A stretch of DNA of 64,000 nucleotides, from positions 438,528 through 502,527 of the forward strand of contig CAVSPA010000006.1 in the NCBI GenBank assembly GCA_963729715.1. Reading direction: 5' to 3'. Shown here one piece after another: positions 46,908 through 50,801 of the stretch (positions within the stretch are counted from its first letter, which is position 1; each line of letters opens with the position of its first letter). The translations under genes and the position numbers were made by a program. This DNA comes from an uncultured delta proteobacterium (GTDB lineage Bacteria; Desulfobacterota; Syntrophia; Syntrophales; UBA2185). Under the pieces are notes generated by a model, which was given only the letters and a program-made list of their open reading frames with translations, did not search any database and was not told where the DNA came from.

Positions 46908-46967
46908 CAAGGGGTTAACCGTTCATTAGCTAACCCCTTGATTGTGTGTGGCTCGCCGGGACGTACA
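46908..46967 (-). repeat. att scar 2: hairpin plus degenerate tRNA-Asn 3' end
   Basis: CAAGGGGTTA..TAACCCCTTG then TGGCTCGCCGGGACGTACA. Confidence 0.8.
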
Positions 46968-47054
46968 GTTGTAAAAATTTCACCTCCACAGTCCTATTTC
47001 AATGGACACGTGCACTTAGAGCTAATTGAGCAGTTCACCTTGTATAATCAAAAT

Positions 47055-47260
47055 CGTTTAGTAGATGCATAAAAACTTAATAGCATATGTTAAATAAGAA
47101 TAATATAAATACGTGTTGCGTTGGTTGCAGTAGACCGTTTTCACCGTGGGGCAGAGCCCGTTTGGTAGCTTGGGTCGCTGCGACCTTCTCCAAATTAAAC
47201 CCGAACAGTTGCCAGGGACTTAAACAGATCCCGCATCTTTCGCAAGGAAGGGAAAAGGAG
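47055..47260 (+). ncRNA. IS110 bridge RNA (ends approximate)
   Basis: Two internal-loop hairpins carrying TTCACC / TTGGTAG (target guides) and ACAGTTGC / CAAG (donor guides). Confidence 0.75.
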
Positions 47261-47268
47261 AACAAAAC

Positions 47269-48252
47269 ATGAAAGAGGAGAAAACATTTATCGGTATCGA
47301 TGTTTCGAAGGAGAAACTTGATGTAGGAGTAAGGCCTCAGGTGGATTTTATGACATTTGCCAATACGGAAGACGGCATATCTTTGCTGACGGATTTCGTA
47401 AAGTCAAAACAGCCGGAGCTAATTGTGCTTGAAGCCACAGGGGGGTTGGAAATGGCTGCTCTCAGATCCCTGGTTGTTGCAAAGCTTCCCGCAGTTTGTG
47501 TCAATCCCAGACAGGTGAGAGATTTTGCCAAAGCTATGGGTGTTCTGGCCAAGACGGATAAAATTGACGCCCATGTTATTGCACGATTTGCAGATTCGGT
47601 GAGGCCGGAGATAAGGCCATTAAAGACCGAGGAAACGGAAATGCTGGATGCTTTTAATACCAGGCGCAGCCAGATCATCATAATGTTGACGGCTGAGAAA
47701 AACCGTTTGACCACAGCTTCGAAGTGGACGAAAAAAGATATAGAAAGAAGCATTAAAGGGCTGGAGAAGGCACTTGCCAAAATCAACCGTGAGGTTGAAA
47801 ATCTTATCAAAAAAAGCCCGCATTGGCGGCATATGGACAAGATCCTGCAAAGTGTTCCCGGTGTTGGGCCTGTTATGTCATTGACCGTCCTTGCTGATCT
47901 GCCGGAGATTGGAACAATGAACCGAAGGCAGATAGCGGCCCTTGTTGGAGTTGCACCTCTGAATCGGGATAGTGGCAAATACAAAGGCAAGCGTACCATC
48001 TGGGGCGGCAGGGCAAGAATCCGTTCCGTATTATACATGTGTGTCATATCAGGCATTTGTCACAACCCCAAGATAAAAGCTTTTTATAACAGGTTGATCA
48101 GCTCTGGGAAGAAACACAAAGTTGCCATTACTGCCTGTATGAGGAAGCTTATGATTATCCTCAATACAATGATCAAAAATGGTACCTGTTGGAATGAATC
48201 GGGCGGGATATTGTCAATAGTTGTGGATGAGACATTTTTCAACGTATCCTGA
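47269..48252 (+). CDS. IS110 recombinase/transposase; last codons replaced by IS256 sequence
   Basis: [20 protein letters not shown] (DEDD), SVPGVGP, RDSG; native end WNESGC* continues at 49632-49637. Confidence 0.93.
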
Positions 48253-49622
48253 CCCTTTTCAAATTCAAGCAGCTTCTTTCATTATTACACCATCAACAAA
48301 TCTGATTCCTTCAATGACCTTGCAGATAAGGTTATGCCCCCTGATTCTCTGCCAAGTCTTTTCTGCTTCCATGGCCAATTTGAAAACCATGGTAAGTGTT
48401 GCCAATCTTGAGCCACAACCTTTTGTCCGTTTTGTGCGAAGCCTCACAGTGGCAAAGGTTGATTCGATAGGATTTGTAGACCGGATATGACGCCAGTGCT
48501 CTGCCGGGAAATCATAAAAAGCAAAAAGACTTTCTTTGTCTTTTCTTAAACACTCGCATGCTTTTTCATATTTTGCCTGATATTGAGATAAGAAATAATC
48601 ATAGGCTCTAAAGGCTTCATCCCTGGTCGGAGCCATATACATGTCGCAGATATGAACCTTGGCTCTCGGTTGAACGCTCTTTGGCATCTTATCCAGGATA
48701 TTGGCAGTCTTATGAACCCAGCAACGCTGCTCTATTGTTTCCGGAAACTCCTCCCGAAGGGCTGCCCAGAATCCCAAGCCGCCGTCACCAACCGCCAACT
48801 TAGGACCTTCTTTAAGCCCCCTTTGCTTGAGATCGCGCAGCATCTCCTGCCAAACCTGTTTGCTCTCCCGGTATCCGTCAAGAAGGGAAACAAGTTCCTT
48901 CTTCCCGTCTTCCAATGTCCCCATAATGACCAAGATGCATTGCCGCTTGTTCTCCACATCTCCCAAACGAACATTGAAATAAATGCCGTCTGCCCAGAAA
49001 TAAACGTATCGCTTATGGGCAAGATCCCGCCCCGCCCAGTTTTCATAATCTTGTCCCCAGAGAGTCTTTAATCGAACAATATTTGTGGCGGAAAGCCCCG
49101 TTGCGTTCTTTCCTAATATGGATTCTAGTGCCTCACTGAAATCCCCAGTGGAGATCCCCTTAAGATAGAGTGCCGGTATTAAAGCGTCTATTGATGGAAC
49201 TCTTCTCATATATCTCGGCAAAATAGTGCTGGTAAAAGCCTCGCCTTCTCTCTTGTCGTGAATGCGGGGCTGTTTCACTTGCAATGGCCCAATGCCAGTC
49301 ACAATCTCTCTTTCCGGTAAGGACCCGTTCCTCACAACCATGCGCCGACCACCATTATCTCTCGCATCCTTGAAACTCTCAATGTACTCACTTATCTCAT
49401 TCTCTATGGCCGCCTGCAACATCCGACAGGCGCCTTCCCGGATAATTAACTCCAATGCGCTTTTTGATTCTTCTTTAACTTGCTTTTCCAGATAATCTCG
49501 TTCATTATTCTCCATGGGCGTATCCTTCTTTCTCCCCTCTCGCCAAGGGGGCTTTAAGTTAAACTACACTTATTTAGGATACGCCTTCTTTTTATCCTGT
49601 CCACAACTTTGGGTTATATCTC
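48205..49622 (-). mobile_element. IS256-family element (1418 bp) with 9-bp TSD GAATCGGGC
   Basis: IRs GGGATATTGTCAATAGTTGTGGA / GAGATATAACCCAAAGTTGTGGA; TSD at 48196-48204 and 49623-49631. Confidence 0.93.
48265..49515 (-). CDS. IS256-family transposase
   Basis: YLKGISTGD, WADGIY, GDGGLG, QRCWVH, STNPIES. Confidence 0.95.
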   Translation of the reverse strand: MENNERDYLEKQVKEESKSALELIIREGACRMLQAAIENEISEYIESFKDARDNGGRRMVVRNGSLPEREIVTGIGPLQVKQPRIHDKREGEAFTSTILPRYMRRVPSIDALIPALYLKGISTGDFSEALESILGKNATGLSATNIVRLKTLWGQDYENWAGRDLAHKRYVYFWADGIYFNVRLGDVENKRQCILVIMGTLEDGKKELVSLLDGYRESKQVWQEMLRDLKQRGLKEGPKLAVGDGGLGFWAALREEFPETIEQRCWVHKTANILDKMPKSVQPRAKVHICDMYMAPTRDEAFRAYDYFLSQYQAKYEKACECLRKDKESLFAFYDFPAEHWRHIRSTNPIESTFATVRLRTKRTKGCGSRLATLTMVFKLAMEAEKTWQRIRGHNLICKVIEGIRFVDGVIMKEAA

Positions 49623-49752
49623 GAATCGGGCTGTTAAAATACTACTTGACGTGAAACACAGTTGCTACCAACAAACAGTGGACACTTGCTAACTAAATTG
49701 TAGATTAACAAAAGAAGGGTGTATGGCTGTGCTCCATAAATGAGCAAATAAC

Positions 49753-50247
49753 CTATTTGGCGGAACGCACCGGGAGCGCCCGGCTGTAGTATTCGATAGA
49801 CTGGTGACTCCAGTTCTGTTTTCCAGAGTAGAAATCGAAGTTGGCGGCATCAGAACCGCGTTTTTCTGAAGCCCATACCCAAGCACACGTAAGATGAATC
49901 AATTCCGTTAAATCAACACTATATCCACAGTCGGACTTATAATTCTTAGTCCCGTTATACAACTTCGCTAGCTCATCCTGATATGGCATCCGCCAATCCG
50001 TATAACCGCCCCCGCGATAATTCTCGCAATACATCTTGGCACTTTGCCAGTTAATATTCGCCCCGTTGTCCCTAGACGCCCACATCAGGTTCGTACTCGT
50101 GTCCAGAACCGTCCCATTGTCATAGGCGATAAAACGACCGTCCTTGCCAGTCTCCCTTGCTGTGGCATACTTTGCCGTAATAAAGGCTCCTATTAAAATA
50201 GCCACCACCATTGCCGTAATGAAGAAACCTTTTCTCAACTCAGTCAT
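49753..50247 (-). CDS. Exported Lcl/DUF1566-domain protein
   Basis: Signal/TM segment, DNGTVLDTSTNLMW, GGYTDWRMP, terminal LPVR. Confidence 0.85.
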   Translation of the reverse strand: MTELRKGFFITAMVVAILIGAFITAKYATARETGKDGRFIAYDNGTVLDTSTNLMWASRDNGANINWQSAKMYCENYRGGGYTDWRMPYQDELAKLYNGTKNYKSDCGYSVDLTELIHLTCAWVWASEKRGSDAANFDFYSGKQNWSHQSIEYYSRALPVRSAK

Positions 50248-50385
50248 AAGTTAAACTTCCCCTCACAAAGCAATTATCCAAGTTTCAATCATGCATATCA
50301 TAGTTATCGAGGAATTAACATCAATGATTTGGACTAGAAGTCTTGCATCTTTGCCGAGATTGACGGTTTGTGTATAGCAGGAAGG

Positions 50386-50558
50386 AAGTAATACCCGAGT
50401 TGTTATTGTCTATTGGATCGGGATTTGGCCGGAGAATTTTCCAATATAAAAGTTCTTACAGGCGTACGTGTTGGGGTCTAATGATAACAACAATGCTTAT
50501 GATATGAATTTTTGAGCTGTAAGATATAGGACCGAAATTACGAGGATAATTACAAAAT
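50386..50558. repeat. 173-bp direct repeat, copy 1
   Basis: Matches 51824-51996 except 2 substitutions. Confidence 0.95.
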
Positions 50559-50613
50559 AAAAGGGTCCAATTCTCAAGATTGGAACCCTTATTTTGGCTC
50601 CAAGGGACGTACA
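50553..50613 (-). repeat. att scar 3: hairpin plus degenerate tRNA-Asn 3' end
   Basis: CAAAATAAAAGGGTCCAAT..ATTGGAACCCTTATTTTG then TGGCTCCAAGGGACGTACA. Confidence 0.7.
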
Positions 50614-50801
50614 ACAGCAAGAACTTTTCATCTACTGTATTATTCCAACATAAAAGAGTACTTAGCGCAAATTGGGCGATACCCCTACAAACAAATGATT
50701 TTGCATAGTTGGAGTGACTGAAGATTATCAATTGAAATGTTTTAACGATGCCCATCTGGCGCGTAAGCGAGCATAGCAAAAATCGTTAAAACTATAGCAA
50801 C

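Follow-up and report, generated by a model that had tools for sequence, protein, structure and literature searches.

The 64,000-nucleotide stretch of DNA analyzed here (the window; contig CAVSPA010000006.1 of an uncultured delta proteobacterium of the order Syntrophales) contains, near a tRNA-Asn gene, short reading frames that begin at the scars of attachment (att) sites. An earlier note, made from the letters of the window, had read these frames as orphaned C-termini of a gene, probably a recombinase, that crosses attP, the attachment site of the mobile element itself. We found natural proteins in which a large serine recombinase (LSR) continues in frame into such a tail, and consider it very likely that the frames are attP-side 3' ends of LSR genes, orphaned relics of lost autonomous islands.

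Tail frames and their recombinase partner

The window holds the following tails:

41807..41983, plus strand: scar 1, att core and a family-B tail of 58 codons, holding the predicted family-B attP right arm (translation, profile and arm symmetry)
46949..47029, plus strand: scar 2, att core and a family-A tail of 26 codons with its natural TGA, holding the predicted family-A attP right arm
50595..50708, plus strand: scar 3, att core and a family-A tail of 37 codons, of which 26 form the conserved part
51991..52086, plus strand: fourth tail, family B, with core, hairpin and first 8 codons deleted (tblastn, and profile at E = 3.8e-17, the tail being itself one of the three rows of that family-B profile)

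Each of the three scar frames opens on TGG. Upstream, the tails are preceded by only 5–15 in-frame open codons, with a single TTG or GTG each and no Shine-Dalgarno-like sequence, in agreement with the earlier observation that they lack a convincing ribosome-binding site and start; the frame of about 58 codons reported at scar 1 measures exactly 58. The fourth tail is additional to the three scars described before, and its 5' deletion apparently occurred at a 5-nt microhomology. As TGA at codon 27 is the stop in 9 of the 12 closest tails, the natural length in the subgroup of scars 2 and 3 is 26 residues; it is likelier that the TGG at codon 27 of scar 3 is a read-through change than that scar 2 is broken. 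Two tail-A-like fragments and one tail-B-like fragment, without the TGG core and away from tRNA-Asn, are present elsewhere in the host genome (G000; C5:430643, C3:57170 and C4:211508).

Relatives were searched in 339 genomes of the host order. The family-A profile matched 37 places in 23 of these genomes, none in an open frame of more than 125 codons, and the three-row family-B profile matched 17 places in 13 genomes. A DNA-pattern scan of genome contigs returned 119 stretches, mostly chance matches, with about 6 real scars among them. When longer proteins were searched with the family-A profile, six were returned, and four (P0001–P0004) are recombinase C-termini in frame with the tail. A profile search of 50%-cluster representatives gave 11 matches; LSR-like ends precede the tail in 3 of the 7 short ones viewed. 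With one LSR-tail-A protein as the query, 28 of the 339 genomes were matched.

The earlier note had suggested looking for recombinase open reading frames (ORFs) that run into antisense tRNA-Asn in the same frame as the tails, which reads Trp-Leu at the core (the WL frame). Such ORFs exist. They span 353–370 codons in G130, G091, G131 and G017, and a 541-codon LSR ORF of G088 reads into tRNA-Asn in the same way. Among 30 tRNA-Asn flanks examined (of about 250 matches), one had a long LSR ORF, likewise in the WL frame, which belongs to another subfamily (G062, 307 codons to the contig end); 20 further flanks yielded two with LSR-B, both from the genus of the window and in the WL frame (G006, 363 codons; G001, 179 codons). 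A serine resolvase catalytic domain (PF00239, E = 2e-26) was recognized in the upstream ORF of G131 and is fused in a single chain in 20 more distant homologues, and PF07508 and PF13408 (recombinase, and zinc ribbon with coiled coil) are present in P0017, P0039 and the G006 ORF. Serine integrases were the top matches in a fold search (Z 12.9, with a high root-mean-square deviation of 13.7 over 312 residues). Judged from domains and fold, the partner of the tails is a large serine recombinase. The earlier analogy with split integrases of the Mx8 and SSV1 type thus holds for an attP within the recombinase gene and fails for the chemistry, as the partner is a serine and not a tyrosine recombinase.

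Near-identical natural LSRs terminate in either a 13-residue antisense-tRNA peptide or a tail. Of the 88 homologues found for the G131 protein, the short tRNA-antisense peptide terminates 39 and tail A terminates 4; the remainder have other long tails (7), other short ends (5) or no such end (33). One 90%-identity cluster of 10 contains 3 members with tail A and 6 with tRNA-type ends, and another, of 18, contains 2 with tail A and 11 with tRNA-type ends among the 15 members listed. Over 9126 bp, two metagenome contigs (L374 and L375) agree at 100% identity; they diverge within TGGCTCC, past which one enters tRNA-Asn and the other a third tail type (L374:9120). The long-tail contig is probably a tandem insertion, or may be a circle. 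This third type stands behind LSR-A-type genes, and a fourth occurs on distant unsplit relatives (P0023, P0026, P0027). In G131, 27326 bp separate the LSR at tRNA-Asn from a family-A scar that follows 250 bp left over from the same LSR end; by its arrangement, this is a chromosomal LSR-tail fusion made by accretion. Hence the claim that the gene is complete only in the excised circle is not supported, since the fusion also forms in the chromosome by tandem island insertion (G131, G130).

The family-A LSR is encoded by two overlapping ORFs in all three intact genome copies (G091, G131, G017) and in L374–L376. A catalytic ORF of 172–177 amino acids is followed by a DNA-binding ORF of 367–369 amino acids whose ATG or GTG overlaps the first stop in the +1 frame (coordinates about 390–2016 in L246, L247 and L248). 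The split is conserved across genera, relatives of 47% identity are single chains, and 38 of the 60 best homologues start at the same internal site by a simple pattern. The split gene may specify a two-chain enzyme, or a programmed frameshift may join the ORFs.

The last 45 nt of the LSR gene before TGG (L245–L248, L312) code through a hairpin whose stem carries the attP arm motif; the motif therefore occurs thrice in attP, and the hairpin could act as a terminator for the tRNA. A separate 116-amino-acid piece, consisting of the last 78 LSR residues and tail A, has 35 members in one 90% cluster (that of P0004), and its genome copies (L177 10066–10419; L274 1500–1830) break at nearly the same point. 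It may be an inherited remnant or a separately made small protein.

Arm symmetry and selection in the tails

Because a tail cannot be assigned to its enzyme from adjacency alone, we examined the symmetry of attP. Combining 4 LSR-A left ends with 30 A tails gave 77% inverted symmetry on one axis through the core TGGCTC, and 2 LSR-B left ends with 10 B tails gave 85% on a neighboring axis. Cross A/B pairs and other axes reached at most 0.42, the other axes staying at or below 0.40. LSRs require an attP with inverted arms around a short core, and both families present this arrangement, the arms being predicted ones. On the pattern of symmetry, the tail DNA holds the right arm of its own LSR's attP, which defines two tail families. 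The reconstruction proposed in the earlier note, an in-frame attP fusion, is realized in the natural LSR-tail-A proteins; joining LSR-A in silico to scar 2 or 3, or LSR-B to scar 1, likewise keeps the frame, which adds little on its own since all share TGG.

Scars 2 and 3 were compared with the IS110 element after scar 2 skipped. As noted earlier, 22 of 34 residues are identical, 12 of them through synonymous codons, and 19 of the 33 nucleotide differences fall at third codon positions. Random mutation simulated with the same number and type of changes left a mean of 14.3 identical residues (P = 0.0001 for the observed 22). The signal is confined to codons 1–26, where 18 of 26 residues are identical, a value reached in none of 20000 simulations; codons 12–26 alone gave P = 0.0017, and codons 27–34 gave no signal (P = 0.60). 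For the ratio of nonsynonymous to synonymous differences (pN/pS), the WL frame gives 0.25, and four of the remaining five frames exceed 1; a low value is seen as well, as expected, for the antisense mirror frame.

A DNA profile of family A gave 129 distinct matches in the loci examined, of which 39 were kept at E < 6e-4; the 32 of these that begin with TGG and are long enough formed the selection set. Within the first 24 codons, stops occur in 2 of the 32 copies in the WL frame and in 16–31 of the 32 in other frames. Over 106 pairs of copies, pN/pS is 0.52 for the whole WL frame and 0.58 for codons 12–26; unrelated frames give 0.94–1.17 and the antisense mirror frame 0.62–0.77. The excess of third-position changes persists in codons 12–26, beyond the arm. 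In codons 1–11, conservation is equal at the three codon positions (0.81, 0.82, 0.81), because the tail DNA is coding sequence and contains the binding arm as well; conservation there is partly that of att-arm DNA besides that of protein. The earlier claim of purifying selection therefore stands for codons 1–26, with this qualification for codons 1–11, and lapses for codons 27–34, which are at chance.

The tRNA-Asn array and the proposed mechanism

The tails belong to a tandem array with these further features:

41807..54460: tandem array of 12.65 kb adjoining the 3' end of tRNA-Asn, four LSR-less island units with tail types B, A, A, B
54461..54536, minus strand: tRNA-Asn(GTT), the integration target (ARAGORN)
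45542..46948: tRNA-proximal end of unit 1, D34, about 290 bp with a terminator-like hairpin, split by an IS630 element at about 45705–46828
45764..46795, plus strand: IS630-family transposase (DDE_3)
about 47041–49666, plus strand: IS110-family element directly after the scar-2 tail (transposase 47269–48252)
about 48205–49622: IS256-family element nested in IS110 (transposase 48265–49515, minus strand)
49753..50247, minus strand: Lcl_C-domain protein, cargo of unit 2
50383..50594: tRNA-proximal end of unit 2, D1 segment with hairpin
51821..51996: another D1 copy (98% identity), closing the third unit
54171..54460: second D34 end, adjoining the tRNA, 80–89% identical to the first

The interval 41807–54460 is inserted DNA, because the left flank of scar 1 matches the tRNA-Asn flank of two island-free genomes of the same genus (50/60 and 51/60 nt) and a contig from run X15 passes straight from 41805 to 54460. 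D34 (about 290 bp) closes both B units, and D1 both A units. By Pfam, the cargo comprises a TPR/glycosyltransferase-like protein, a GNAT fragment, the Lcl_C protein, a cupin and a Gp49-like gene pair. This last, in the tRNA-proximal unit (53374–54028), consists of a PF05973 gene and a small downstream partner without a Pfam match, which we take to resemble a toxin-antitoxin pair. The D1 ends hold, in inverted orientation, a degenerate copy of the right arm of family-A attP (50449–50481 and 51887–51919; L138), about 115–145 bp from the crossover; it occurs in G275 and G008 too. In relatives, the combination of tail A with D1 was found once, in G008, and tail B with D34 once, in a 13.8-kb unit of G003 (L334; C11, about 71900–85760) that has other cargo and lies at a tRNA-Glu-type site, with a core that matches this tRNA. 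This unit suggests target switching or unit mobility. D34 was matched in 25 of the 339 genomes, full-length only in G000 and G003, and no integrase was identified beside the full-length copies that would mark an autonomous element ending in D34. Fragments of tRNA-Asn 3' ends are repeated at about 365-bp spacing in G193 (C19, 12477–13228) and G076 (C102, 62–454).

No LSR sequence was found in the window between 40001 and 55000, and no cognate LSR in the host genome (100% complete by markers, 19 contigs). The only LSR-like gene found there, an unrelated serine recombinase (G000, C6:126600–128900, near 127.5 kb), was rejected as the cognate enzyme: it has frameshifts and stops, is 28% identical to LSR-B and is without a matching C-terminus. 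A cognate left arm is absent at all four window junctions (best inverted match 5–7/10), and a circle of any unit would place only 5–15 codons ahead of the tail. Small-share RNA runs do not amount to evidence of expression. As both the LSR gene and the attP left arm are absent from every unit and no cognate LSR was found in the genome, we conclude from the sequence that no switch operates at this locus now; the recombination-controlled switch proposed in the earlier note does not apply to the window. Loss of this kind is common among family-A scars, and stepwise accretion with later decay is the simplest account.

We propose the following for autonomous islands. The LSR gene lies at the tRNA-proximal edge, its last codons crossing the crossover within TGGCTC, the antisense of the tRNA CCA end. 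In the attP form the gene ends in a tail of 26–58 residues whose DNA doubles as the right recombinase-binding arm. Comparison of the two kinds of end shows that integration swaps this tail for 13 residues supplied by the antisense strand of tRNA-Asn and leaves the old one at the far end of the island. Excision would restore the long tail, as would a related island inserting at the tRNA, a configuration seen for tandem neighbors. In the window, four islands (B, A, A, B) would have accreted and later lost the LSR gene and left arm, leaving the tails as relics whose low ratio of nonsynonymous to synonymous substitution (dN/dS) would mostly have been acquired while they were part of autonomous elements.

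The tail itself may fold into a small C-terminal extension on which the integrating form depends for full activity or stability; integration would then tune the enzyme down. AlphaFold2 predicted a strand and a helix in the tail of a natural LSR-tail-A protein (predicted local distance difference test, pLDDT, of 58, 77 and 67 in successive blocks) and an unstructured tRNA-type end in a relative (pLDDT 44 and 40). On balance, and by analogy with Mx8 Int, we lean toward the long-tail form being the integrating form that is fully active or stable. Most alignments to solved LSRs stop at about residue 340 of 387, which makes the tail an extension past the canonical LSR fold, and it may be inert or non-essential. 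It seems to us unlikely that the system goes as far as a two-chain serine integrase whose attP tail gives an integration-competent form and whose antisense-tRNA tail gives an attenuated or excision-biased one, with integrase-free, tail-keeping mini-islands as mobile cassettes that re-arm the integrase of the upstream neighbor and tRNA-Asn as an integron-like cargo-stacking site in the order. A reading of the arrays as integrons was rejected: they contain no integrase and their junctions are LSR att scars (no formal search for attC sites was made).

Several observations count against the relic interpretation or against a role for the tail. An LSR-type left flank is present on only 2 of the 30 family-A scars, so that repeated left-arm deletions are needed. 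The two AlphaFold2 models are of different proteins (about 61–68% identical) with moderate confidence in the tail; the tail lies beyond the aligned fold; and unrelated tails of at least four types occur in the LSR family, as would equally be expected of a non-essential extension. For family B, one weak search found no natural LSR-tail-B protein, the pairing comes from arm symmetry with only two left arms from one genus, and G006 and G001 carry the two ends of the B element on different contigs. Many tail copies came from a protein profile, which favors open frames, and kin are not independent. A search of viral contigs with P0039 gave no match, and the contigs of four runs held no circle joint, which as a result from contigs only does not show absence of an excised circle.

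The LSR-free units could instead be non-autonomous cassettes with fixed end pairs (A with D1, B with D34), mobilized by an LSR acting in cis or in trans and donating their tail to whatever LSR is situated upstream, with selection on the tails continuing. Arrays of 0.9–11-kb units, tail first and hairpin last, recur across the order with no integrase in the stretches examined; each end pair occurs twice in the window and once in a relative, in the case of B and D34 with the other cargo at the tRNA-Glu-type site; and premature stops are rare (2/32 family-A copies). However, lacking a cognate left arm, these units would form circles that do not constitute attP. D34 may come from unrelated islands, as its last 80 bp are similar to ends found at many other tRNA genes; the B unit of G177 has a different end; and neither circle joints in the four runs nor a cognate LSR in the host genome was found. 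We regard such cassettes as fairly unlikely.

That the conservation is one of att-site DNA only, the peptide being functionless translated read-through, seems clearly improbable to us. The even conservation of codons 1–11, which hold the predicted arm, and the wide differences in tail sequence and length among related LSRs are what it would predict, and excerpts of McMurdie (2011, PMC3146451) name it as the trivial option for DsiB, a serine recombinase. Against it, codons 12–26 keep their third-position excess, with pN/pS at 0.58 over the 106 pairs and, for the two window copies, P = 0.0017; 9 of 12 close copies share the stop at codon 27; and a strand and helix are predicted in the tail. Small independent genes, or tails of tyrosine integrases, are highly improbable. 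Hairpins and short direct repeats, typical of tyrosine-integrase island ends, do occur on many left flanks, and G275 has a tyrosine-integrase fragment just downstream of a tail; this fragment is in another frame and missing from the sister copy, and was rejected as the partner. The frames have no ribosome-binding site and only 5–15 upstream codons, all identifiable long natural fusions found are with LSRs, and the arm symmetry is LSR-specific. We therefore retain orphaned LSR 3' ends as the explanation of the window frames.

Relation to known systems

The concept is already in print as a conjecture for a serine recombinase. According to excerpts of McMurdie (2011, PMC3146451), in the ssrA islands of Dehalococcoides the 3' end of the dsiB gene always overlaps attL and reads antisense into the target RNA gene or an adjacent island; the islands form tandem arrays, a six-gene module with DsiA, ParB and Mom is characteristic of them, 15 have no integration module, and the suggestion was made that DsiB may reach full function only when on the circle or next to an island that supplies the 3' fragment it needs. 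The same excerpts report divergent DsiB C-termini and show no conserved tail. Our system is alike in the LSR 3' end, which overlaps attL and has its stop codon beyond the island, and in tandem arrays with many units devoid of an integration module. It differs in its target, tRNA-Asn rather than ssrA, in two tail families under purifying selection that are paired with their LSRs by arm symmetry, and, set beside DsiB as described there, in the split of the family-A LSR into two ORFs. The Islander study (2015), in the part consulted, states that serine integrases are not known to target tRNA genes. Our literature search returned no description of a serine integrase with attP in its own gene at a tRNA, nor of split LSRs; Mageeney et al. 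(2020), on regulated gene integrity, may cover the family. New here are the tRNA-Asn target, the evidence for selection, the two tail families with their matched arms, proteins found naturally in two states, and an LSR clade whose gene is divided into two overlapping ORFs.

Although the window locus itself is a decayed array, the 2011 conjecture thereby becomes a testable system, with long- and short-tail forms of near-identical enzymes, defined predicted attP arms for two families and a universal target. The findings also show that the 3' ends of tRNA genes are targets of serine integrases, by way of a core so short that island finders based on tRNA fragments would miss it, and the tails could serve as markers for mapping decayed islands. 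If the tail does set directionality, a class of enzymes on which genome engineering draws would have a new mode of control.

Site-specific accretion and cis-mobilizable elements (CIMEs), as far as excerpts describe them (PMC5704250), likewise give tandem decayed islands at a tRNA 3' end with integration genes lost; CIMEs keep both att sites and are mobilized in cis with an adjacent active element, whereas the window units keep the distal arm without a cognate proximal one and have no active neighbor. In mycobacteriophage BPs, attP also lies inside a gene and integration changes the C-terminus, but by the excerpted account (PMC4557955) that gene is for a repressor, which loses a degradation tag with its tail; a tag of this kind is not evident here, and none was searched for. 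In Mx8 Int and SSV-type integrases, attP is inside the integrase gene and integration gives a new 3' end (excerpts of PMC6070905, PMC5861418 and PMC4383910), and for Mx8 integration is reported there to modify, not abolish, Int activity (PMC6070905). These are tyrosine recombinases, in contrast to the serine chemistry and very short core of the present system, in which the 26–58 residues exchanged lie outside the catalytic and DNA-binding core. Canonical LSRs recombine attP with attB in one direction and use a directionality factor for excision. With such enzymes (9dxh, 4kis, Bxb1, phiC31) the system shares resolvase, recombinase, zinc-ribbon and coiled-coil domains and inverted attP arms about a central core. 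It departs from them in that the gene crosses attP and has an extra, exchangeable C-terminal tail, and the family-A clade, with its two overlapping ORFs, does not keep all domains in one polypeptide.

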